Source of the DNA: an uncultured virus (IMG/VR IMGVR_UViG_3300042894_007218)
Lineage: Duplodnaviria > Heunggongvirae > Uroviricota > Caudoviricetes
Reading direction: 5' to 3' (one strand)
Length of the DNA: 64,000 bases
Virus record (IMG/VR): IMGVR_UViG_3300042894_007218
Part shown: positions 1 to 49,692 of the stretch, piece by piece
Numbering within the stretch: position 1 is the stretch's first letter
Layout: each line of letters opens with the position of its first letter
Program-made: the position numbers and the translations under genes
Notes under the pieces: generated by a model
The model's input: the letters and a program-made list of their open reading frames with translations, nothing else
Databases searched by the model: none
Told to the model about the DNA's origin: nothing

Positions 1-886
1 GGTTAACAGAAGTAGAAAAATATTTAAAACTATTAATGGTAAAGAATACAAAATAGATCCTAATGTTTCATCTTTAACAAAAAGAATGAATAAGATGTGG
101 GGTACTGAATACGAGACACCAGCACATCGAATGATTTTTGACTACATGCAACTTTATGAAATTTGCGATACTTCAATCAAAGTAAAAGAATCTTCATCTT
201 TAGACTTTGTTTCTAATAAATTAGTTGGTGTAGAAAAGATTAAATATACTGGTTCTCTTCAAAAGTTGTATGAAGACGATTTTGAAACCTTTATGTATTA
301 CAACGCGGTCGATAGTGTTCTCGTTCAGAAAATACATGAAGCCAGAAATTATATATCAATCATTTATGCGATTTCATCACTTGCTCAAATTAGGATTGTT
401 GACGTTGTTTCTCAAATGAATAACGCCTTAGGTTCACTTGCTATTACAGAAGGTGTGTTAAGAAATAGATTTAGACAACAAGATAATATTGTTCTTTTTA
501 GAGATGAGAAGGGAGATGCTGAATCTACGATTGCTGGTGGTTGGGTTAAAGATCCGGTTGTTGGTCTTAACCAGTGGGTAGTTTGTTATGACTTTGCATC
601 GCTATATCCAACAACTCAACGTCAATTTTATATTGCACCAGAAACTTTCGTTGGTCTACAAGATGAAAAAGATAAAACAAAATGTTCAAATGGACGAATA
701 ATTGATTTAGAAAAACATGTTGTTTGTGTTAATGGCGTTGTTTTCGAAAAAAGGTCGTCGCCAACTCTTAGAATGCTTGAGGATGTTTATGCTGATAGAA
801 AAAAGAACAAAAAAATAATGATGCAAAAGAAAGAAGAGTTAAAGGATGTTTTAGATGAAATTAAAAAGTTAGAAAGTATAATCTAA
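1..886 (+). CDS. Family B DNA polymerase, N-terminal subunit of a split gene (5' end outside window)
   Basis: Frame open from base 2; ExoIII-like YNAVDS and motif A YDFASLYP present; stops after the fingers helix (YADRKKNKK), lacking motifs B and C. Confidence 0.85.
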   Translation, partial: VNRSRKIFKTINGKEYKIDPNVSSLTKRMNKMWGTEYETPAHRMIFDYMQLYEICDTSIKVKESSSLDFVSNKLVGVEKIKYTGSLQKLYEDDFETFMYYNAVDSVLVQKIHEARNYISIIYAISSLAQIRIVDVVSQMNNALGSLAITEGVLRNRFRQQDNIVLFRDEKGDAESTIAGGWVKDPVVGLNQWVVCYDFASLYPTTQRQFYIAPETFVGLQDEKDKTKCSNGRIIDLEKHVVCVNGVVFEKRSSPTLRMLEDVYADRKKNKKIMMQKKEELKDVLDEIKKLESII

Positions 887-11939: not shown

Positions 11940-13391
11940 ATGTCAAAATTTAACCAAACATTACCAAAACAAAAAACACTAACTGAAAACTTAGCTGGTG
12001 GTCAAGCTTACTCTCAATCTAGTGAGTTAGCACTTGTATCTTTGTTATTGACTTCTTTTGTCAATGACCAATTTTATAGAGGAGCTAAAGATACACTTCA
12101 AGATTTAAAGAAGTTATCTGAGAAAGTTAAAGACAAAGAGTTTGTCGCTAAATCTGCTATTTATGCTCGTGATAAGTTTGGGATGCGTAGTGTAACTCAC
12201 GCACTTGCGGCTGAATTAACTTCTCAGTTGAATGGTGCTGAGTGGGGTAAAGACTTTTACAATAAAGTTGTTGTAAGAGTTGATGACATGACTGAAATTC
12301 TTTCTTATTACTTAGCTTACAAAACCGAAAAAGACAACCCTAAGTTTCCAAACTCTTTGAAAAAAGGATTTGCTAAGGCTTTTGATAAATTTGATGGTTA
12401 TCAGTTGGCTAAGTACAAAGGAGAGAACAAAGATGTTAAGTTAGTTGATATTGTTAACTTAGTTCACCCTGTTCCAACTGGAAAAAATAAAGAAGCTTTA
12501 GAACTTCTTGTAAAAGGTGAGTTGAAAAACACCGAAACTTGGGAAGCTAAACTTTCAGCAGTTGGTCAGGTGGCTGAGTCCGAGGAAGAATTAGCCGATA
12601 TGAAGTCAAATGCTTGGTCTGAATTAATTAGCTCAAGAAAATTAGGTTATTTTGCACTTCTAAGAAACTTAAGAAACATTATTACTCAGTCTCCTGGGTC
12701 TGTAAAGGCGGCTTGTGAAATGTTAGTCGATGAAAAATTGATTAAAAACTCACGAGTTCTTCCTTTCCGTTTTGCAACTGCTTATGATGAAATCAACAAG
12801 ATTGGTTCATCCAAAGAAGTTAGAGATGTTTTGGTAGCTATTAATGGCGCACTTGAAGTTTCTATTCAAAACGTTCCTAAGTTTGATGGTGAAACTCTTG
12901 TGGTTATGGATGTTTCTGGTTCTATGATGGGTAGAGCATCTGAAATTGCTTCTCTTTTTGGGGCTGTTTTAGCAAAAGCAAATAACTGTGATGTTATGAC
13001 TTTTGCAACTGATGCCAACTACAAGTCATACAATCCTTTGGATTCTGTAATGTCTATTAGAAACAGTTTTAAGTATTCGGGCGGTGGAACTAATTTCAAA
13101 GCCATTTTTACAAAGGCAAACAAAAAGTATGACCGTATTATCATTTTAAGTGATATGCAAGGTTGGATTGGTTATACTACACCAGCATCTGAATTTAAAT
13201 CTTATAAGAATAAATTCGGGGCTAATCCTTTTGTATATTCTTGGGACTTAGCGGGGTATTCAACACTTCAATTTCCTGAAAGTAGTGTTTTCGCGTTGGC
13301 CGGGTTTAGTGATAAGGTTTTTGATATTATGTCTTTATTAGAGACTGATAAGAAAGCACTTTATAATGAAATAAAATCTATACAACTTTAA
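11940..13391 (+). CDS. rsr: Ro60/Rsr-like TROVE-domain RNA-binding protein with vWA domain
   Basis: NLAGGQAY, FDGYQLAKY, TWE, ALLRNLRNI, LPFRF, vWA DVSGSM, GGT, SDMQ. Confidence 0.92.
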   Translation: MSKFNQTLPKQKTLTENLAGGQAYSQSSELALVSLLLTSFVNDQFYRGAKDTLQDLKKLSEKVKDKEFVAKSAIYARDKFGMRSVTHALAAELTSQLNGAEWGKDFYNKVVVRVDDMTEILSYYLAYKTEKDNPKFPNSLKKGFAKAFDKFDGYQLAKYKGENKDVKLVDIVNLVHPVPTGKNKEALELLVKGELKNTETWEAKLSAVGQVAESEEELADMKSNAWSELISSRKLGYFALLRNLRNIITQSPGSVKAACEMLVDEKLIKNSRVLPFRFATAYDEINKIGSSKEVRDVLVAINGALEVSIQNVPKFDGETLVVMDVSGSMMGRASEIASLFGAVLAKANNCDVMTFATDANYKSYNPLDSVMSIRNSFKYSGGGTNFKAIFTKANKKYDRIIILSDMQGWIGYTTPASEFKSYKNKFGANPFVYSWDLAGYSTLQFPESSVFALAGFSDKVFDIMSLLETDKKALYNEIKSIQL

Positions 13392-13923
13392 AAGTGAAGC
13401 CTTTGTGGTGTGGTCTTAATCCATTTAAGACCATGCTAATTTTGGGCCTGTTTAGGTTTAGTTTCTCTGAACATTCTTTTATAGAGTCGAATGTTCCTAT
13501 TAATTCATTGTCTTTATAACATTCAATTTTTATTGACTTATACTCTTTAAATGCTATAGCTGCTTTTTTTGGTGGTTTTCTACCTTTTAAAGTTTTTCTT
13601 ATTTTCTCTTTTGTTTCTTCTGATATTTGATAGCAATCACCACCTTCTCTTATATTAGTTAAATCATAATCTTTATTATATTGATTTATATAATATCTTT
13701 CCCAATAATTGACATCACCACTGTTACATTCTTTTACTATTTCCAATATTGGTTTTTTATTTTTATCTAATAGAAACTTTACCCAATTACATTTATGATC
13801 ATTTCTTCTCTTTGATTCTGATATGTGTCTTCTATATCGAACTTTTGGATTCACTGATTGCCCAACATATCTAACATCATTAGTTATTGAACATTTTAAT
13901 ATGTAGATATAATGTTTTCTCAT
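13378..13923 (-). CDS. GIY-YIG homing endonuclease with NUMOD-like DNA-binding tail
   Basis: YIYIL...RYVGQS...R, E..YI, LTN; SEETKEKIR; FDSIKECSEKL. Confidence 0.85.
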   Translation of the reverse strand: MRKHYIYILKCSITNDVRYVGQSVNPKVRYRRHISESKRRNDHKCNWVKFLLDKNKKPILEIVKECNSGDVNYWERYYINQYNKDYDLTNIREGGDCYQISEETKEKIRKTLKGRKPPKKAAIAFKEYKSIKIECYKDNELIGTFDSIKECSEKLNLNRPKISMVLNGLRPHHKGFTFKVV

Positions 13924-27722: not shown

Positions 27723-28178
27723 ATGACAGGACATAAAATTACAGACACGAAACAAGCACTTAAGTTCATCTTTGCTGGTAAATCAGTAGTTACTTTTGTT
27801 AATACACAAACTGGTAACCGTTTTACTTTTAAAATTAAACAAGCAAAAGATTCCAATTTGTTTTTTATTAGTGTTCTTACTGGTCCAGATCAATATACAT
27901 ATATTGGTACTTGTATTGAAGGAAATTACAAACACGGAAAAAAATCACAAATTGGTGAGGTTTCACAATCTGTAAAAGTTTTTGTTTATATGTTAAAAAA
28001 ACTTATTAGTGACAATCTACCAGATTTTCTTGAAGTTTGGCACGAAGGATTTTGTGGTAAATGTGGAAAAAGATTAACAGTTCCTCAATCTATATTGACT
28101 GGTATTGGACCAGACTGTATCAAAAAACTTTCTAAATCTGAAAAAAGAGATAAATTTTTAGAATTAATTTTAGCTTAA
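27723..28178 (+). CDS. DUF6011-like zinc-finger protein
   Basis: CGKCGKRLTVPQSILTGIGPDC. Confidence 0.75.
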   Translation: MTGHKITDTKQALKFIFAGKSVVTFVNTQTGNRFTFKIKQAKDSNLFFISVLTGPDQYTYIGTCIEGNYKHGKKSQIGEVSQSVKVFVYMLKKLISDNLPDFLEVWHEGFCGKCGKRLTVPQSILTGIGPDCIKKLSKSEKRDKFLELILA

Positions 28179-32662: not shown

Positions 32663-33730
32663 ATGAAAAAGTCTAAATTTTTAGAAAAAGCCAGGGAAAA
32701 GCATGGATATAAATATCAATATCCAGACTTGCCGGAAGTTGTTATGCAAAATGATTATATTAATGTTTTATATAATGGTGTTATTTATAGACAAAAAGTA
32801 TTAAAACATTTTAAAGGCAATAGACCAGAGTTGAAAACTGTAAATAAAACCACAGAAGAGTTTATTAAAGAGTCTATTAGTATTTGGGGTGATAAATATG
32901 ACTATTCTATGCTTGAATATAAAAATGCAAGAACAAAAGTTAAAATAATATATGATGGTATAATATATGAACAATATCCAAATTCACATCTAAACGCATA
33001 TCCGGTTGAAGGTTATTTAGATCAAAATGTTTTTATACAAAAGGCTATTAAAAAATGGGGTGATAAGTATGATTACTCACTTGTTAAATTTGAAAATGCT
33101 AATACAAAGGTTGAAATATTATTTAATGGTGATTCATATTATCAAACACCTCACAACCATCTAAAATACGCACCAGAAAAAAGACTATTTAAAAAAACAA
33201 CTGATCAGTTTATTCAGGAATCTATAAAAATACATGGTGATTTTAGGTATTTATATGATAAAGTTATATATAATAACGATAGAGAAAAAGTAGTAATTAT
33301 TTGCCCAATACATGGAGATTTTACTCAAAGACCCAATCAACATCTAAGAGGTGCTGGTTGTTCTAATTGTAATGAATCAAGAGGTGAAAAGGAAATTTCT
33401 AAATTTCTAGATAAATATGATATAAATTATTATAGACAATATAGGTTTAATGATTGTAGAGGTGTTAAATATCCACTACCATTTGATTTCTATATTCCTT
33501 CTACACGGACTTGTATAGAATTTGATGGTGAGCAGCATTTTCTACCTTTATCTTTCTTTGGTGGTCAAGAAGCTCTGGAGAAACTTAAAATCAATGATAA
33601 AATTAAAAATGATTATTGTGAAGATAATTATATCAATCTAATAAGAATACGATATAATCAAATAGATGATATTTGGAGAATATTATATGAAAATTTAAAA
33701 AACTATATAAAAACAAAAAAGACCAGTTAA
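32663..33730 (+). CDS. Putative homing endonuclease: repeated FI..(H/W)GDKYDYS modules plus PD-(D/E)xK/Vsr-like nuclease
   Basis: Three to four repeats, CPIHG..GC..C, PFDFYIP, IEFDGEQHF. Confidence 0.8.
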   Translation: MKKSKFLEKAREKHGYKYQYPDLPEVVMQNDYINVLYNGVIYRQKVLKHFKGNRPELKTVNKTTEEFIKESISIWGDKYDYSMLEYKNARTKVKIIYDGIIYEQYPNSHLNAYPVEGYLDQNVFIQKAIKKWGDKYDYSLVKFENANTKVEILFNGDSYYQTPHNHLKYAPEKRLFKKTTDQFIQESIKIHGDFRYLYDKVIYNNDREKVVIICPIHGDFTQRPNQHLRGAGCSNCNESRGEKEISKFLDKYDINYYRQYRFNDCRGVKYPLPFDFYIPSTRTCIEFDGEQHFLPLSFFGGQEALEKLKINDKIKNDYCEDNYINLIRIRYNQIDDIWRILYENLKNYIKTKKTS

Positions 33731-33743
33731 ACTGGTCTTTCAA

Positions 33744-34933: not shown

Positions 34934-34946
34934 AACATGTATCATC

Positions 34947-35123
34947 ATGAATAAACTTAAACTTAAATTATTTGCGTTAAAGGTAGAATTGAACTCGGCT
35001 TTTGGTGTTCAAAAAAATAAGAGTCTTAATGATGAACTTATTCAGGAACTTGTTGATACTAAGTCTAAGTTTTTTAAGATACAAAAACGAGTTTTAAAAA
35101 TTAAAAGACTATATGAGTTATAA
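34947..35123 (+). CDS. 58 aa mini-protein with a PolB motif-B-like segment (not in ORF track)
   Basis: MNKLKLKLFALKVELNSAFGVQKNKSLNDELIQELVDTKSKFFKIQKRVLKIKRLYEL. Confidence 0.6.
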   Translation: MNKLKLKLFALKVELNSAFGVQKNKSLNDELIQELVDTKSKFFKIQKRVLKIKRLYEL

Positions 35124-35466
35124 AAGAGTAATACAATTAAAAGGATTAAAAGATAAGGTTTCTAAAAGATATTTTATCACTATAAAATTTTATCACAAAG
35201 CTAAGTTTCTTTTTGAAGAAAAATTTGATATTCATGATATGGTAATTGATAATGGTTGGAAAAGTATTTCATCTGCTGAGACGATGATTATTTTCCCATC
35301 ACTTTTTGATATCTATACTGGAAAATATCCTCTTCCAAGTAAAGGTTTTGATATGAATAGTCTCGACCACTGGCTAGTAAAAGAAGAATGGGGTTATTCA
35401 ATTTGTTTAAAAGATGAAGATTTGGCTAAATTAAGAAACTTCAGAATTGAAAATTTAGGACTATGA
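35113..35466 (+). CDS. Hypothetical protein
   Basis: 117 aa, ends LRNFRIENLGL. Confidence 0.6.
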   Translation: MSYKRVIQLKGLKDKVSKRYFITIKFYHKAKFLFEEKFDIHDMVIDNGWKSISSAETMIIFPSLFDIYTGKYPLPSKGFDMNSLDHWLVKEEWGYSICLKDEDLAKLRNFRIENLGL

Positions 35467-36335
35467 GAGACATAAGAACATTTGTAAAATTATTTGATTT
35501 AAATATTCCGGATTATGAACATTTTGATTATTACATTTATCAGTATTCAAAATTAGAACGATGGAAGGACATTTATTCTATGATTGATTTATATACTGAT
35601 TTTGAAAATATAGTTAGTGATCCTTTTCAATATAAAATTGATAAGTCAAATCAAATTATCGAGTTCATAGAAAATACAAGAACTTATAATGAGCTAAATG
35701 ATGATAATTTAATTCCGGATTTACCGTTCACAAAAAAATTTGAATATTCTGAAGATAAAAAATATCTATCAATTGATTTAAACTTAGCTAACTGGCAAGT
35801 ATTAAAAAAATACGATCCTGAATTCTTAAATGAATTGGGTAATAGTTGGATAGAGTTGCTTCAAAAATTTGATGTCCATCGGGTTTTTTGGCATTCAAAA
35901 CAATTTAGACAATTTATTTTTGGTCACTTAAATCCAAAAAAACAAACAAAGGCACAAAGAGCCATTGTAGAGGATTTAATAAAAACTATATCACAGTTTT
36001 CTGACATCAAAGTAATTTGTACTAAACCAGATGAAGTAATTTATGAATTTGATGAATTTTCAAAAATAAAGAAAGTCGTTGATAGTATCGATGCTAATAT
36101 CTTTAAATATAAAATTTACACAATTAAAAGATGCGATGATTTTAGAATTAATAGTTTTATTGATATTAATGGCAATCACTTACATAAAGAACTTTCTAGT
36201 TGTAATGGGAATAAATATTTCATATATTTGAAAAAATATATATTTGAAGAAAAACTTGATATTAGAGATTTGTATTTTAGAATTGATGGTGATTTGGCTA
36301 TTTGGAATGTAAGTGGATTGAAATTAGAATTATGA
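35463..36335 (+). CDS. Hypothetical protein
   Basis: 290 aa ORF; YLSIDL..AN motif of unclear function. Confidence 0.65.
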   Translation: MRDIRTFVKLFDLNIPDYEHFDYYIYQYSKLERWKDIYSMIDLYTDFENIVSDPFQYKIDKSNQIIEFIENTRTYNELNDDNLIPDLPFTKKFEYSEDKKYLSIDLNLANWQVLKKYDPEFLNELGNSWIELLQKFDVHRVFWHSKQFRQFIFGHLNPKKQTKAQRAIVEDLIKTISQFSDIKVICTKPDEVIYEFDEFSKIKKVVDSIDANIFKYKIYTIKRCDDFRINSFIDINGNHLHKELSSCNGNKYFIYLKKYIFEEKLDIRDLYFRIDGDLAIWNVSGLKLEL

Positions 36336-37228: not shown

Positions 37229-37789
37229 ATGAGAGAACGACTCATAAATATCATTCGATATTCTCAAACAGTGATTGCAGTTATATTATTCTTTGCTGTT
37301 TTTGCTCTTTGTTGGTGGCAAACTGGTTTTCATTTGTCAGAAATACAACTATCGGATTGGGGCAAATCGGGTCTTATAGGATATCTTTGGAACACTGTTA
37401 TCTGTGGGTTAGGTATATCAACATTTATAAATTCTATTTTTTATATAAGAAAATCAAATCGTATAAAAACTAAGTGGTTATCTTACACTATGTTTAGTTT
37501 TGTTTCGTTAGCTCTTTTTTGTACTGGTTTTTTTAATCTACATTGGGGTATTATACATATTTGGTCAGCGTGGATTTATTTCTTTGTTTACCCACTTGTT
37601 ATTTTTATTCATAGTCACTTAAATAGAAAAGTATTACATTATAAAGACTGGCGTGATGGTATTTTGATTTCTATAGGTATGATAGTTTTACCTCTTCTTA
37701 CTTTAAATTTATTTTTTGGTGTTGCAATTCCTGAAACAATACACATTATTTTTGTTATAATATGGAACCTTAAAATTGCGTTTAAATAA
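37229..37789 (+). CDS. Multi-pass membrane protein (DUF998-like)
   Basis: About six hydrophobic helices, LSDWG, IH. Confidence 0.6.
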   Translation: MRERLINIIRYSQTVIAVILFFAVFALCWWQTGFHLSEIQLSDWGKSGLIGYLWNTVICGLGISTFINSIFYIRKSNRIKTKWLSYTMFSFVSLALFCTGFFNLHWGIIHIWSAWIYFFVYPLVIFIHSHLNRKVLHYKDWRDGILISIGMIVLPLLTLNLFFGVAIPETIHIIFVIIWNLKIAFK

Positions 37790-38178
37790 TGTTTCTATAC
37801 AAATTAAAAAAAGTACTAAAAGAAAAACGAGTCGATTTGTGGAAGACATCATTTAGCTTTTCACTCATCGTATCATTTTATCCACTTTTCGTAATGGCTT
37901 TTATCTTTAATGATGATTTTTCAATATCTGATAAAAAACAAATGGCAATTACATCCGCAATATTAACTATCCTAAATTTTACAATAATTTATTTTGTTGA
38001 CTATTTTTTTAAGTATAATATTATTTTTTGTATTTTATCAGGTCAGACTTTTTGTTTTTTTGTTTTTTTTATACCTATCTTTATCTTTGCGGTATATCAA
38101 GAGATTATCGACTTGAAATTAGATAAATCAGAGATTAGGGAAGCCAAATTAAATAAAGTTTTTAGAAAATTGTTCTAA
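37789..38178 (+). CDS. Membrane protein
   Basis: Three hydrophobic segments; ends IREAKLNKVFRKLF. Confidence 0.6.
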   Translation: MFLYKLKKVLKEKRVDLWKTSFSFSLIVSFYPLFVMAFIFNDDFSISDKKQMAITSAILTILNFTIIYFVDYFFKYNIIFCILSGQTFCFFVFFIPIFIFAVYQEIIDLKLDKSEIREAKLNKVFRKLF

Positions 38179-38712: not shown

Positions 38713-39060
38713 ATGTTTCAATCTGAAAAAAATCAAGAATTAGACCTAAATAACCCTATCTTTGTATTCTATGTAGATGTTGAGAATATATCTCGCCAAA
38801 GGGCTGAAGAATATATGGAGAATTGTAAAAAAAATTTCGATGTCTATAAAAATGCAACTATGTGGTTTGTTGCTGCCAAAAAAAGTGAAGTAGTTTGTGT
38901 TTATGATGGTTGGGGTAGAGTTAGAGACCACGAATTAAAAGATTTAATAGAAGAGATAAATAATAAAATAGAAATTATGTCTAATTCTCATTCATTTGAA
39001 GATTTTAAAATAAATGTAAGAGATTGGAGATTAGGTAAGTTAGTTGATGAAAAAGAGTAA
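38713..39060 (+). CDS. Small protein with a portal (gp20)-like segment
   Basis: IFVFYVDVENISRQRAEEYME; ends VRDWRLGKLV. Confidence 0.55.
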   Translation: MFQSEKNQELDLNNPIFVFYVDVENISRQRAEEYMENCKKNFDVYKNATMWFVAAKKSEVVCVYDGWGRVRDHELKDLIEEINNKIEIMSNSHSFEDFKINVRDWRLGKLVDEKE

Positions 39061-41165: not shown

Positions 41166-42344
41166 TTAGTATACTGAATAGAAAGTGTTCATATTAGTAT
41201 CTATTCCTGTTTTATTTGATGATTGGTCTGAATTCCACATTATCATTTCACTTAATTTACCTTGATAATGTCCAAATCCATTTAAATATCTATTTGCTCT
41301 CATCGCTGATCCCCACGCTCCGAGTGACGATTCTGAGTTACCATTATATGAAGCGTATAGGTTTAGACTTCTCATATTAACATATAATACAAATGGATTG
41401 GTTGATGGTCCCGCTAAAGTAAATGTTCTATTACTTAAAGGTGAACCTGGAAAAGGTGTACCAAAATCATTTTTATAAAACTCAAAATTACCTGAACTAT
41501 TTATAAAAATCCTTTCATAGCTATCTTCGTAATTTACAAAAAAGTTATTACCTGCAGTTTCAATTTTACCAACAGCATATAATGTCCGATAATCTACATT
41601 AGTATAACCAGCCACTGGATTATTAGGTCTATAAAAAACATTTATACCTGTTGTATTTAAACAAGGATTACTATTTAATGTTTCAATAGTTCCTGAATTA
41701 ACAATTTTTGCTTGTGTGACTGCTTGCCACCAAGTCATATTTATATTATTTCCCGATTGATCGTACCAGGTAACAACATAGCCACTTACTGCGCCAACAA
41801 ATGTTGTTAAAGTAGATTGATTCAAATTTCCACTACCATCAAATCCTATATCCTGTTCTGTATTATCAGACGATCTTCTAACTCTGATAGCAGAACCGGT
41901 GTATGTTGATGACAGTTTTCTTAAAGAATATGCGGCTGCCGCACCACTGTATGTGTCTAGTAGAAGTTCTATACCTGGTACAAAAGAAGTCCAATGTCCA
42001 TTTGTATCTATCCAACTCTTAGCTGCAGAGGCACTATTAAAAGATTGGCCAAAAAACTTATTAACTGCTGTTATGAAATCAGAATCTGTTTTTGCTACAC
42101 TTCTATAAAATCTGATTGAATTACCAACATAAAATCCTTTACTTGATGTTCCCGCAATTGGATAAGTTCTGTTTTGACTTGATGTTTTACCGAGTAAATA
42201 ACCAGAACTATCATCTGGTGATATTTGTATAAAAAGACTTCCTGAGTTTACAGGAAAACTATCAAAAACAGCAATATTTCCAACTTGAGTTGCTCCTAAT
42301 GGTGGTGTTCCTGATGGATTAAATGCGAAAGGTTTAGTTGCCAA
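41166..42344 (-). CDS. Modular fibre/adhesin-like virion protein A (TTG start)
   Basis: N-domain shared with B and C; C-domain AAYSLRKL..YTGSAIRVRRSSDN.EQDIGF, WYDQSGN (lectin-like). Confidence 0.7.
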   Translation of the reverse strand: MATKPFAFNPSGTPPLGATQVGNIAVFDSFPVNSGSLFIQISPDDSSGYLLGKTSSQNRTYPIAGTSSKGFYVGNSIRFYRSVAKTDSDFITAVNKFFGQSFNSASAAKSWIDTNGHWTSFVPGIELLLDTYSGAAAAYSLRKLSSTYTGSAIRVRRSSDNTEQDIGFDGSGNLNQSTLTTFVGAVSGYVVTWYDQSGNNINMTWWQAVTQAKIVNSGTIETLNSNPCLNTTGINVFYRPNNPVAGYTNVDYRTLYAVGKIETAGNNFFVNYEDSYERIFINSSGNFEFYKNDFGTPFPGSPLSNRTFTLAGPSTNPFVLYVNMRSLNLYASYNGNSESSLGAWGSAMRANRYLNGFGHYQGKLSEMIMWNSDQSSNKTGIDTNMNTFYSVY

Positions 42345-42596: not shown

Positions 42597-43703
42597 TTAT
42601 ACTTGACGTCCAAGGGTTGTTTGGAATGCTTGCACTGCTGTGTAGAAGTTAGCTGCTTCAGTGTCTGTTAGACCTAAACCTATTGATGCTAAAGCGCACT
42701 GATTTGTACCCCATCCATTTTGATTACCAAATAATCCTAAGTTTCCCATATAACTACCAGTATATGATGTTGAGGATATTGTTCCTGTTACAATTGAACT
42801 ACCATTTTTAAATAATTTTGCAGTAGTGCTTACTCCTTTACCACAATAAAACCCTCTTGCATCAGTATTAGCAACATTTATAATACCATTGTTTTGATAA
42901 TAAGCATTACTATTCGGAGTATATTTTAAAATTAAACCCAATGTGTTATTGCTATTCGTAGATAAAACAACATCATCACCACCAATATTATTAGTCCTTG
43001 AATAAAATGAAACGTGATTATCTTGTGGTGTTACACCAGTTCCTCCAATTGCATATAAAGGAAAGTTAAGATTTCCCCATCCGTTTGTTCCGTTTGGCAA
43101 AACTCCATTACTGCTGTGTGTAAGGCCCCCATTCCAAGTAATCTGATACTGAGCAGTATTCATAAAATTATATGAATGCTTTCCAGCAGTACCTCCTACA
43201 AACGGATATAAAGCCTTCATCTTAGAAGTAAGTCCATAGGTAGTTAAGTCTGTCTCAAGTGTATTTAATGCGCCTAAGATAGTCAAGTCCGTTTCTCCCG
43301 TAGCAGCTATCCAAGCAGTGGTAAGTAGTCCGTATGAGTTATTAGAGGTGTAAGAAGTCCAATAACCATTCGTGTTTAACCAGTTTTTAGCAGTTGTCAC
43401 ATCACTAAATGATTGGCCTATAGCCTTTTTTACAAGTGATAAAAACAAATTATCAGTTTTAGAACTAGTTCTCCAAAAACCTACAGAATTTGTTGCGATA
43501 TTCATGGTCTTATTTGCCGCAGTTCTTGGTCCAGATGGATGTGCAATAACATACCCTAAATCCTCATCTGGTCCGTTAAACCATTGAAGACCACCAGCAG
43601 AATTTAGAAAACCAGTATCCTGAACTGCTACGTTTCCAAATTGAGTTGCACCGGTTGGTGCGGTCACTGATAAGTTGTATGCAAAAGCTCTTGATGTTGC
43701 CAT
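42597..43703 (-). CDS. Modular fibre/adhesin-like virion protein B
   Basis: MATSRAFAYN, WFNGPDE.LGYVIA, KMKALYPFVGG, FQTTLGRQV. Confidence 0.7.
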   Translation of the reverse strand: MATSRAFAYNLSVTAPTGATQFGNVAVQDTGFLNSAGGLQWFNGPDEDLGYVIAHPSGPRTAANKTMNIATNSVGFWRTSSKTDNLFLSLVKKAIGQSFSDVTTAKNWLNTNGYWTSYTSNNSYGLLTTAWIAATGETDLTILGALNTLETDLTTYGLTSKMKALYPFVGGTAGKHSYNFMNTAQYQITWNGGLTHSSNGVLPNGTNGWGNLNFPLYAIGGTGVTPQDNHVSFYSRTNNIGGDDVVLSTNSNNTLGLILKYTPNSNAYYQNNGIINVANTDARGFYCGKGVSTTAKLFKNGSSIVTGTISSTSYTGSYMGNLGLFGNQNGWGTNQCALASIGLGLTDTEAANFYTAVQAFQTTLGRQV

Positions 43704-46465: not shown

Positions 46466-48334
46466 TTATACGTTTCTGCTTAATGCAGTTTGATATGTTT
46501 GTACTCGTGTGTATAAGTTAGCTGCATCTGTATCTGTTAGTCCATCCCCAATAGAAGCAAATGCTGTCTCTTTAGTTGAATATAAATTAGCACCCGTTCC
46601 AACTAAATTCCTTGCGCCAAAATAAACATTGCCATTTATTGCAGTTGTTCCAGATGATGTGTTTGAACCTTGAGATGTTCCGTTCTTATATACCTTTTGA
46701 AGTGTAGATGTTGTCCTTGTATTTAACCATAGACCTCTTGAATCTGTTACTGCAAAATTGACATTAGTTGCTGCTATATGATTTCCAAAATATCCAACAT
46801 TACTTATTCTACTTTCAACATCAAAATATTGACCAATACTTCCAATTAAACCAGCATCCACTCTAACCTCATCTAAATTTGTTCTAATATAATAAGATAA
46901 GTGATTATTGTCTTTATAGGTATTCACATTGAAATTTGAATCTCCAAATCCATTTGTTCCGTTAAATAAAACTCCTGTACTGCTGTGTGTAATTCCACCC
47001 GCCCAAGTGATTTGATAAGCAGCAGTATTCTTTAAATTATAAGAATGTGCCGTTGCATTACCTCCTACCATTGGATAGATTGCAGCCATCTTAGTCCATA
47101 AACTATCTGCTTTCAATCCTATTACAAGATTGTTGACCGCAGTTGCTTGTGTAGTATCTGTAATTACCGCAGCATTTAAGAATGCTTGTGCATCTGAATC
47201 TGATACGATAGGCACACCCACTTGCCTTCCTAAAGTTGTTTGAAACCTCTGTACCGCAGTGTATAAGTTAGCTGCTTCGGTGTCTGTAAGTCCCTCTCCT
47301 ATTGTACTCAATGCTAACTGTCTATTTGAATAATAACCACTAGAGCCATTATTATTGAATGCACCTAAGTATATTGAGTTAGAATTTAAGCCTGTACTAT
47401 TACTTACTCCTGTAACTAATTTTGTATTTTTTTGGAAAACACTATACTGATTTGAAGCTATTCTTGAAATTAAAAACAAACCTAATGAGTCTACAATTCC
47501 TGTATAATTTACTTGATCACTTGAATTTAATCTTGAATAAAAATATACACTACTAAATCTAGGTAATATATAAAGCTGATTAGTATCACCTGCATTACCC
47601 GAGCCTATATCTACACTTGTTCCAGGGGTATCTGTTCTACTATAAAAAGAAACGTGTGTGTTATTTAAAGATAGTGCAGAAGATGGTACTAATCCCGTAT
47701 CGGCAAAAGCATTTGTTCCATTCGGTGTAGCTCCTGTGCTGCTATGTATCCACCCACCATTAAATGTAAGTTGATACTGAGCAGTATTCATAAAGTTATA
47801 TGAATGCTTACCCGCAGTACCACCAACAAATGGATATAAAGCCTTCATCTTAGCAGTCAATCCATAGGTAGTTAAGTCACTTTCAAGAGTATTTAATGCT
47901 CCTAAAATAGTAACATCTGTCTCTCCAGTGGCAGCTATCCACGCAGTAGTTAGTGTGCCGTATCCGCCACCACTTGATACCCAAGAAGTCCAATAACCAT
48001 TCGTGTTTAACCAAGTCTTTGCTGTTGATGGATTGGTAAAGTTTTGAGGAGTTGAATATCTACTTGAAATATAATTTGATATTGATAAAAAAGAAGCCTC
48101 ACTTTGAGTGGCGGATCTCCAAAATTGAACATTAGCTGTACCACCACCTGGTTTTGATTGACCTGGTGATTCATAAGCAATAACATAACCAAGTGTTTCA
48201 TCTGGTCCATTGTACCAAGTCAATGAAGAAGTAAGCCCAGAAAAACTTGTACCAGAAATCGCCAGATTTCCAGTCTGAGTTAATCCAGATATCAAACCAC
48301 CTGTATTGTAAGCAAACGCTCTTGAAACTGCCAT
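46466..48334 (-). CDS. Modular fibre/adhesin-like virion protein C with tandem C-domains
   Basis: Same N-domain as A/B; two copies of the B-type C-domain (ending LGRQV and LSRNV). Confidence 0.72.
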   Translation of the reverse strand: MAVSRAFAYNTGGLISGLTQTGNLAISGTSFSGLTSSLTWYNGPDETLGYVIAYESPGQSKPGGGTANVQFWRSATQSEASFLSISNYISSRYSTPQNFTNPSTAKTWLNTNGYWTSWVSSGGGYGTLTTAWIAATGETDVTILGALNTLESDLTTYGLTAKMKALYPFVGGTAGKHSYNFMNTAQYQLTFNGGWIHSSTGATPNGTNAFADTGLVPSSALSLNNTHVSFYSRTDTPGTSVDIGSGNAGDTNQLYILPRFSSVYFYSRLNSSDQVNYTGIVDSLGLFLISRIASNQYSVFQKNTKLVTGVSNSTGLNSNSIYLGAFNNNGSSGYYSNRQLALSTIGEGLTDTEAANLYTAVQRFQTTLGRQVGVPIVSDSDAQAFLNAAVITDTTQATAVNNLVIGLKADSLWTKMAAIYPMVGGNATAHSYNLKNTAAYQITWAGGITHSSTGVLFNGTNGFGDSNFNVNTYKDNNHLSYYIRTNLDEVRVDAGLIGSIGQYFDVESRISNVGYFGNHIAATNVNFAVTDSRGLWLNTRTTSTLQKVYKNGTSQGSNTSSGTTAINGNVYFGARNLVGTGANLYSTKETAFASIGDGLTDTDAANLYTRVQTYQTALSRNV

Positions 48335-48894: not shown

Positions 48895-49692
48895 ATGAAA
48901 ATTCTTAAAATATTTGAAGAAAAGTTAAGATATAAAAATTACTCTGAAAGAAGTATAACTTTATATGTTTCTTATTTATCTTTCTTTCTAAAAGAAGAAG
49001 GAATAAAAGACCCTTATCAAATTACTACAAATAGAATAGTAAGTTTTTTGGAAAATAAATCTTATACTTCTATAAGTCAGCAAAATCAATACATAGGTTG
49101 TTTAAAATTATTTGCTAAGTATATACTTAATAAAAAAGATATACACCTATCTAAAATTGAAAGACCTAAATCGGAAAAAAAACTTCCACAAGTTATAGAT
49201 GGAGACCACATAAAAGAACAACTATCTAAAATAACTAACTTAAAACACAAAACTATACTCACACTAACCTATTCAGTTGGTTTAAGAGTGTCTGAGGTAG
49301 TTAATCTTAGAATCGAAGATATTGATTCCAAAAGAATGATTATCTACATTAAAAATGCTAAAGGTAAAAAGGATAGAATAGTTCCTCTTTCTCAAACTGT
49401 TTTGGATTTAATGAGACAATATTGGAAAGAATACAAACCAAAAGAATATTTATTTAATGGTCAATCTGGTGGGAAATATTCCATTCAATCCTGTCAAAAA
49501 ATCTATAAAAAGTATATTGATGAAAGTTCTTCTATACATACATTAAGACATTCCAGCTTCACTAACCTTTTAGAGTCTGGAACAGATCTAAGGATAATAC
49601 AAAAGTTAGCAGGTCACTCCAGTTCTAAAACCACCGAGATTTACACTCATGTTTCAAATCAATTACTAAGTAAAGTAAATTTACCAATTTAA
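48895..49692 (+). CDS. Tyrosine recombinase with SAM-like N-domain
   Basis: GLRVSE, KGKKDR, HTLRH, AGH, IYTHV catalytic residues. Confidence 0.92.
   Translation: MKILKIFEEKLRYKNYSERSITLYVSYLSFFLKEEGIKDPYQITTNRIVSFLENKSYTSISQQNQYIGCLKLFAKYILNKKDIHLSKIERPKSEKKLPQVIDGDHIKEQLSKITNLKHKTILTLTYSVGLRVSEVVNLRIEDIDSKRMIIYIKNAKGKKDRIVPLSQTVLDLMRQYWKEYKPKEYLFNGQSGGKYSIQSCQKIYKKYIDESSSIHTLRHSSFTNLLESGTDLRIIQKLAGHSSSKTTEIYTHVSNQLLSKVNLPI

Follow-up and report, generated by a model that had tools for sequence, protein, structure and literature searches.

A conserved 58-residue predicted protein with a motif-B-like segment and a shared C-terminal motif in a phage lineage with a split DNA polymerase

Positions 34947–35123 of the analysed window (the whole stretch of 64,000 nucleotides of the IMG/VR virus record IMGVR_UViG_3300042894_007218) are predicted to form a genuine, conserved stand-alone gene. 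We consider the mini-gene real because of its homologues, its conservation pattern, the signs of selection and the population data. The explanation that suits the data best, and whose truth we put on a par with its contrary, is that the mini-protein would be a very basic, tag-docked two-helix accessory protein of approximately 55–60 residues. In the same explanation, the mini-gene would lie within a tightly packed run of + strand genes for DNA metabolism and small uncharacterised proteins. The joint claim that, moreover, it occurs only in a single lineage of huge freshwater phages whose family-B DNA polymerase (PolB) is split is likewise given an even chance. As judged from the gene content of the relatives, the mini-protein does not serve the polymerase as a subunit that provides motif B. 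The sequences point to a new family of small proteins, for which a tie to the polymerase is suggested but not proven.

The mini-gene, its family and its neighbours

An earlier note on this DNA, made from the letters alone, had singled out a 58-aa ORF with a polymerase-like motif, and such an ORF does exist: 58 codons on the + strand run from the ATG at 34947 to a TAA ending at 35123, with K-x3-N-S-x-F-G at residues 12–20. The product ends with ...KRVLKIKRLYEL, the last eleven residues being RVLKIKRLYEL. Homologues of 41–95% identity were detected. The mini-protein itself and six relatives (47–93% identity) were found in a collection of 5.8 billion proteins, and clustering at 90% identity gave seven clusters, the window's own counted. 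The profile search of 1.84 billion representatives returned 18 matches at E ≤ 0.001, among which were 14 full-length proteins of 44–61 aa and no polymerase. No match was obtained with tblastn against 50,697 phage records (E ≤ 10) or with an exact 64-base search in viral_contigs, and the ESM Atlas gave no usable match to the mini-protein.

The family alignment A5 consists of 18 rows. It was built without the degenerate P0268 and without four longer matches from the representatives, which were rejected as family evidence: P0264 and P0265 cover profile positions 1–40 and 1–39 only, i.e., the N-terminal part, and P0273 and P0276 are repeat proteins. The frameshifted variant P0005 was omitted from alignments A1, A2 and A5; its frame shifts after about residue 31 and its end lies in the +1 frame, through sequencing error or because this 1.5-kb contig carries a broken copy. 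In A5, N16, S17 and R48 are invariant, position 19 is Y or F in all 18 rows, K12 is kept in 17 (E in the remaining one) and G20 in 14 (H, S, D or S in the other four), and K39, K51 and I52 are retained in at least 90% of the rows. The gaps comprise whole codons and are confined to the variable loop between the predicted helices.

Comparison with the DNA of two relatives gave dN/dS values from 0.2 (L011 versus L012) to 0.5 for the mini-gene and from 0.11 to 0.32 for its conserved blocks, the lowest value coming from the two blocks of L011 versus L012. Synonymous codon differences were observed at N16, S17, G20 and R48. In contigs from four lake-water DNA runs, the ORF was free of indels and carried a single substitution, N24D, located in the loop. 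The reading that the ORF arose by chance or is untranslated DNA can draw on the frameshifted database variant P0005; purifying selection, codon-wise indels, the position conserved over six loci, the calling of the gene in several independent collections and the lack of any Rfam family in the window all speak against it. We regard this reading as scarcely credible, and the selection data appear to bring it close to refutation. The earlier note had named a lack of conservation as grounds for dropping its proposal; homologues and purifying selection (dN/dS 0.2) were found instead.

The window has a G+C content of approximately 30% and encodes, among others, a DnaB-like helicase, ribonucleotide reductase, a UvsX-like recombinase and PhoH (features in the table below). 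The records closest to it are two 'uncultured phage' genomes, LR745206.1 (635 kb) and LR756502.1 (642 kb); PMC9723777 counts both as some of the largest megaphages and names a Japanese subsurface sample and a French lake as their sources. The stretch is present in DNA runs labelled lake water or freshwater metagenome, and no RNA run occurs among the 20 runs listed with it. The promoter scan of the window, with 26 sites versus 21.7 expected, was uninformative. The related contigs G001 and G002 are classed as 'provirus' in IMG/VR. One of the paralogous genes of 368–622 aa matches the virion structural protein family phrog_10356.

Features of the window (strand and basis as found in this analysis)
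Feature	Position	Strand	Basis or remark
PolB N-subunit gene, 3' part	2–886	+	motif A and first fingers helix; TAA at 884–886
Homing-endonuclease-like gene, GIY-YIG/HNH type	13378–13923	-	phrog_314
Gene of 151 aa, tag-like end ...KRDKFLELILA	27723–28178	+	PSSM 12.2 bits, 0.15 expected by chance
Homing-endonuclease-like gene, HNH type	32663–33730	+	phrog_559
Two-way terminator-like hairpin	33717–33741
Calcineurin-like phosphoesterase gene, 199 aa	34334–34933	+	phrog_547, E 9.9e-41; 13 bases upstream of the mini-gene
Mini-protein gene	34947–35123	+	58-aa ORF, predicted two-helix hairpin, net charge about +8; homologues, alignments, AlphaFold2
Motif-B-like segment K12-V-E-L-N16-S17-A-F19-G20	34980–35006	+	end of predicted helix 1; regex, A5, hhalign
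C-terminal tag R48-V-L-K-I-K-R-L-Y56	35088–35114	+	regex in last 22 aa; PSSM 14.1 bits
Next gene, 117 aa	35113–35466	+	start overlaps the mini-gene end by 11 bases
Tagged small gene, 129 aa, ends ...IREAKLNKVFRKLF	37789–38178	+	regex; PSSM 26.1 bits, G001 homologue in the PSSM
Tagged small gene, 115 aa, ...VRDWRLGKLVDEKE	38713–39060	+	regex; PSSM 15.2 bits, homologue in the PSSM
Gene of 69 aa	40942–41151	-	near-duplicate of the 74-aa gene; adjoins paralogous larger genes
Paralogous gene (set of 368–622 aa)	41166–42344	-	shared N-terminus of M-A-x-S-R-A-F-A-Y-N type
Paralogous gene (same set)	42597–43703	-	same N-terminus type
Gene of 74 aa	46120–46344	-	near-duplicate of the 69-aa gene; adjoins paralogous larger genes
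Paralogous gene (same set)	46466–48334	-	same N-terminus type
Tyrosine-integrase-like gene	48895–49692	+	phrog_1, E 4.7e-42
Open frame of more than 1,370 codons	59879–64000	+	runs off the window; no PHROG match

The phosphoesterase gene is the upstream neighbour in five of the six mini-gene loci, namely in the window, L011, L012, L046 and LR745206.1, and its stop and the mini-gene start overlap (by 8 bases in L011 and L012) or nearly touch. The LR745206.1 mini-gene encodes a diverged 52-aa version, assigned to the family because P0274 shares its ...KLWKIDGI-type tail. This arrangement would suit a small protein that partners or regulates the calcineurin-like phosphoesterase encoded next to it. 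Against such a role, in L045 a 205-aa gene stands upstream instead, LR756502.1 has the phosphoesterase abutting the next gene with no mini-gene between them, and the phosphoesterases of LR745206.1 and the window are of different subtypes; we consider it very improbable.

Downstream of the mini-gene, the window carries two genes (117 aa and 290 aa, 35113–36335) ahead of a 95-aa gene. The pair is absent from this site in L011, L012 and L046 and has counterparts in LR756502.1 and L045. In L011 and L012, a gene of 85–86 aa, which in the window comes after the pair, follows the mini-gene directly and the 117-aa gene is absent there. A lake contig joins position 35107 to 35454, bypassing the 117-aa gene. 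Just past the phosphoesterase stop of the window, at 34934–34960, the string ...CATCATGAATAA... persists, which in L011 and L012 is the phosphoesterase's own end (H-H-E-stop) overlapping the mini-gene ATG. The phosphoesterase of the window appears to have gained an earlier stop, with the former overlap left as a relic.

A C-terminal motif common to small proteins

The earlier note treated the end of the mini-protein as a recurring motif, and the counts bore this out. The motif was searched as R..[KR][ILV]..[ILVM][LIVFYWM] in the last 22 aa; this tag is our own working class and corresponds to no published family, and the counts are approximate, the genes having been called crudely as longest ORFs with no gene finder. 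With this limit, three of the 87 crude genes of the window matched versus 0.22 expected, and 24 of 544 in G001 (an IMG/VR contig of 436 kb, 95% complete) versus 1.07 expected from its frequency at internal positions. Of these 24 G001 tags, 22 have 0–4 residues behind them. A PSSM was built from 23 of the G001 tags; it includes homologues of the three best window matches and is not independent of them, the G001 homologue of the mini-protein (14.1 bits) being among the 23. The PSSM also added the 151-aa gene, for which no G001 homologue was noticed by eye among the 23 tags, and two weaker window cases. The 117-aa gene behind the mini-gene ends with ...LRNFRIENLGL, which failed the strict regex and scored 1.7 bits (chance would give about 1.7 such scores), and it was not counted as tagged.

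The tagged proteins of G001 have 49–231 aa. They were considered as detectable fragments of larger G001 proteins and rejected as such, since BLASTP of the 24 against the other G001 proteins gave no match at E < 0.01. In Pfam, 22 of 23 tagged proteins (one spanning two loci was omitted) had no match at E ≤ 0.01, and the remaining one had a single match of 18.8 bits, below the cut-off of 24.8. The end of the PolB N subunit (DEIKKLESII) was also tried as a tag and discarded: it scored -1.9 bits, which chance alone would yield about 4.8 times, and so the implication of the earlier note that the polymerase subunit shares the tag had to be dropped. A narrow full-text search of the literature, limited to main texts, returned no description of such a protein or tag. 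We take the tail to be a genuine C-terminal motif, R-x-x-[KR]-[ILV]-x-x-[ILVM]-hydrophobic, common to small proteins of the lineage.

Three tiny genes of G001 (422027–422176, -; 105150–105338, -; 128112–128312, +) encode proteins of 49–66 aa with unrelated front parts and tails much like that of the mini-protein, of the type R-x-x-K-I-K-R-I-Y or R-K-x-x-I-[KR]-x-[IL]-F, and these tails may represent a sub-type of the tag. The 205-aa gene of L045 (76–693, +) has a tag-like stretch ...IREEKLNLLL... in the middle of the protein, as if two tagged genes were fused.

Sliding-clamp binding offers a known parallel: the T4/RB69 proteins gp43, gp33 and gp55 dock on the clamp through C-terminal tails, i.e., a short hydrophobic terminal motif on unrelated proteins is recognised by one reader. 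The PolB C subunit of the lineage ends ...SVVMDIF-G-G-F-like, and because this end lacks the R-x-x-K-[IL] motif, the tag is probably not the clamp tail of the polymerase.

The tag-bearing helix itself allows another view. AlphaFold2, with an alignment of eight sequences, predicted helices at residues 3–20 and 25–57 (mean pLDDT 80.9), the second with pLDDT 89–93 over the central residues 31–50. A Foldseek search of the model against the PDB gave nothing at E ≤ 0.001, the best rows being unrelated helical hairpins. The mini-protein contains 14 K or R versus 6 D or E in its 58 residues, and we read F42, I45, V49, I52 and Y56 as a hydrophobic stripe that fits an amphipathic helix. A small basic protein whose amphipathic, Lys-rich second helix binds DNA, RNA or membrane directly would account for the composition, the stripe, the well-predicted helix and the DNA-metabolism genes nearby, and on this view the tag would be no docking signal but a usual ending for helices of this kind; direct contact with nucleic acid or membrane, with no docking partner, would explain the net charge of about +8 just as well. 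Many G001 tags are mixed in charge and not basic (e.g., R-E-D-K-L-N-S-L-L), and the position of 22 of 24 tags within 0–4 residues of the terminus looks more like a recognised end. Both points weigh against direct binding, which we rate as rather improbable.

The split polymerase and the motif-B-like segment

The N-subunit gene in the window matches phrog_2062 up to position 497 of 502, phrog_262 and PF00136 (model positions 17–151), and over the window's part it is 100% identical to the full-length N subunit P0139 of 508 aa. It ends with ...KKLESII-TAA, past motif A (YDFASLYP) and ahead of any motif B, and the DNA past its stop is the antisense of a 218-aa gene. The C subunit, known from the relatives LR745206.1, LR756502.1 and G001, is encoded there by a separate gene of 474–477 aa, 102–133 kb away from the N-subunit gene. 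It starts approximately 30 residues ahead of its own motif B (LALKLVLNGSYGAF) and also has motif C. The window's polymerase is thus predicted to be split between the two fingers helices, i.e., at the fingertip. The earlier statement that the polymerase gene stops before motif B applies to the gene in the window (2–886), but not to the enzyme, which in the relatives has motif B on its C subunit. In metagenomes, length-bounded searches, with fused forms outside their range, detected 920 and 942 clusters for the two subunits (E ≤ 0.001).

Splits of gp43 into gp43A and gp43B in T4-like phages were reportedly described by Petrov et al. in 2006 and 2010. According to PMC3061061, a break at the fingertip is tolerated in both Pfu and T4-like gp43. 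The window's polymerase resembles in this respect gp43A/gp43B of the T4-like phages 133, 44RR, 31, 25 and 65, as given there, and the engineered split Pfu, broken between the two fingers helices (PMC3061061). The T4-like split genes lie 2 bp to 3 kb apart in that account, in contrast to the 102–133 kb in the window's relatives. A further difference is the third, dispensable product seen here, none being reported for T4-like gp43A/B or split Pfu.

LR756502.1 encodes both PolB subunits and the phosphoesterase, and two HMM searches of the whole record revealed nothing convincing as a mini-gene. Because the split enzyme occurs there without the mini-gene, the mini-protein is dispensable for the split polymerase. 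Two candidate roles were rejected: that of the polymerase's missing motif B, as the C subunits carry motifs B and C themselves, and that of an obligatory gp43B-like subunit, as LR756502.1 has both subunits and no mini-gene.

The signature that drew attention to the ORF was confirmed. The regex K.{3}N[SG].[YF]G has a single match in the six frames of the window (frames of at least 30 aa) and two in those of G001, the true PolB C subunit and the mini-gene; the full K-x3-N-S-x-[YF]-G is intact in 13 of the 18 family rows. When A5 was compared with the C-subunit alignment by hhalign, the single match fell on the motif B region (22 columns, P 0.0027, probability 11%), with residues 10–31 of the family placed onto residues 33–54 of the C subunit. 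Against the 544 crude G001 proteins, the PolB C subunit obtained the top raw score, 22.5, among the 543 non-self ones, with runners-up at 20.9 and 19.3; by P-value it ranked third, behind two small proteins that match the tail only. The earlier note had allowed that the match might prove no better than shuffled controls; none of 200 shuffles of the C subunit reached 22.5, the maximum being 18.6. These P-values overstate the surprise because the ORF was chosen for this very motif. An HMM of helix 1 placed the PolB C subunit second among the 544 G001 proteins, behind the mini-protein, with 4.6 bits versus 4.5 for the next one.

Other searches returned no polymerase. BLASTP of the mini-protein against a C subunit left motif B unaligned. 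In hmmscan against Pfam (E ≤ 10), PF00136 did not appear and the only hits were SelB_WH2 and Cnn_1N, both below the cut-offs; the family profile found no PolB among PDB chains at E ≤ 10. The palm motifs A (D-x-x-S-L-Y-P) and C (D-T-D-S) are absent from the 58 residues, and no mini-ORF with motif A or C was present in the window or G001, where these motifs lie in the true PolB genes; looser forms also matched six unrelated frames, among which were four longer ORFs (160–1334 codons). The description of the ORF as a core-protein fragment is not supported: apart from hhalign, the likeness extends over about 9–12 residues, with neither PF00136 nor a PolB among PDB chains. Further types of tagged core-protein fragment, which the note had also announced, were not found in the window. 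Overall, what the note observed is confirmed and its interpretation is borne out in part, its decoy or regulator of the split polymerase being among the unsupported points.

As in motif B (region III, helix alpha-P), K-x3-N-S-x-[YF]-G ends a predicted helix, and the C subunit has the best profile-profile raw score in a relative's proteome. Unlike PolB, the mini-protein has 58 aa, no palm, thumb, motif A or motif C and no Pfam match, and a loop and a basic helix come after its motif where PolB has the palm; unlike motif B, it has a variable glycine and no Q four residues before K. That position is L, I or M in the family, whereas the Q-K-N face of alpha-P, as outlined in PMC3061061, has Q there. 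The relatives' C-subunit motif B reads N-G-S-Y-G, not N-S-x-Y-G, and because this is the lineage's own motif B, the motif was not copied recently. The likeness is judged real but short (about 9–12 residues outside the profile-profile result), and its only positive homology result, hhalign at 11%, is marginal. That helix 1 descends from motif B or mimics it functionally has, on these comparisons, about one chance in four.

What the mini-protein may do

The helix alpha-P of PolB ends at the motif B glycine, and the predicted helix 1 likewise ends at G20. Together with the invariant N-S, the intact motif in most rows, the exact placement of the hhalign match and its rank against G001 proteins and shuffles, and the regex that in six frames of 436 kb matched just the true PolB and the mini-gene, this raises the idea of a mimic of the polymerase fingers. 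Helix 1 would copy alpha-P with motif B and the K/R-rich helix 2 would stand for the first fingers helix, in the form of permuted mini-fingers. The fingertip split would leave an unpaired fingers helix on each subunit, and the mimic could compete with the C subunit for the exposed fingers helix of the N subunit, regulating or inhibiting assembly, or serve as bait for a host factor that recognises polymerase fingers. Such splits are tolerated in Pfu and T4-like gp43 in the account of PMC3061061, and decoys made from fragments of essential genes were proposed for Bodo saltans virus (PMC5871332).

The same idea has to face the shortness of the likeness and the hhalign probability of 11%, the narrow lead over the runners-up, the third rank by P-value and the near-tie of the helix-1 HMM (4.6 versus 4.5 bits). 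Neither PF00136 nor a PolB chain of the PDB came up at E ≤ 10. The replacement of G20 in 4 of 18 rows is what one would expect of a simple helix cap, and one row has E for K12; the Q of the Q-K-N face given in PMC3061061 is L, I or M; and the lineage's N-G-S-Y-G speaks against recent copying. The selection of the ORF for its motif inflates the surprise of the P-values, and the split polymerase is far commoner (920 and 942 clusters) than the mini-gene (about 20 clusters). Co-folding of the mini-protein (A1) with residues 215–508 of the window's own N subunit (A4) scored 0.00 in two runs with no controls, a result that weighs on neither side. We therefore hold a polymerase-fingers mimic as possible yet doubtful.

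More specifically, the mini-protein could be a set of circularly permuted, tag-carried mini-fingers, its alpha-P-like K/N/S/Y helix being joined to a basic helix in the role of the first fingers helix, and these would plug into the unpaired fingers helix of one polymerase half or bait a host sensor; we consider this joint claim unlikely. Among published ideas, the decoys proposed for Bodo saltans virus (PMC5871332) come closest; there too, a short piece of an essential replication enzyme is joined to a binding module. In that eukaryotic virus, homology suffices to identify the fragments, and an ankyrin array serves as the module (PMC5871332), whereas here a phage combines a motif of about 10 residues, whose descent is uncertain, with a terminal motif of 9 residues. 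No repeat domain of the Bodo saltans virus type was found in the 58 residues by Pfam or in the AlphaFold2 model.

In the preferred reading of a tag-docked accessory protein, the tail helix would dock the mini-protein to whatever reads the shared tag, and helix 1 would present the conserved face of K12, N16, S17 and Y or F19 as its specific working surface. Descent from PolB motif B, imitation of it and convergence on it are all compatible with this face. A generic reading must treat the top-ranking motif B match as convergence or chance.

Should the likeness be due to convergence, the mini-protein is just another small early protein of a phage. If helix 1 does imitate the fingers, the mini-protein would be a natural, peptide-sized polymerase mimic, and such a mimic would provide a handle on the assembly, control or shielding from host defence of a polymerase that has over 100 kb between the genes for its halves. 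Were the permuted mini-fingers true, huge phages would run a tag-addressed library of mimic peptides in which parts of the replicase itself are represented. The shared terminal motif probably matters more: a tag that ends approximately 4% of a relative's genes suggests that huge phages have a system for addressing or docking that is so far undescribed.
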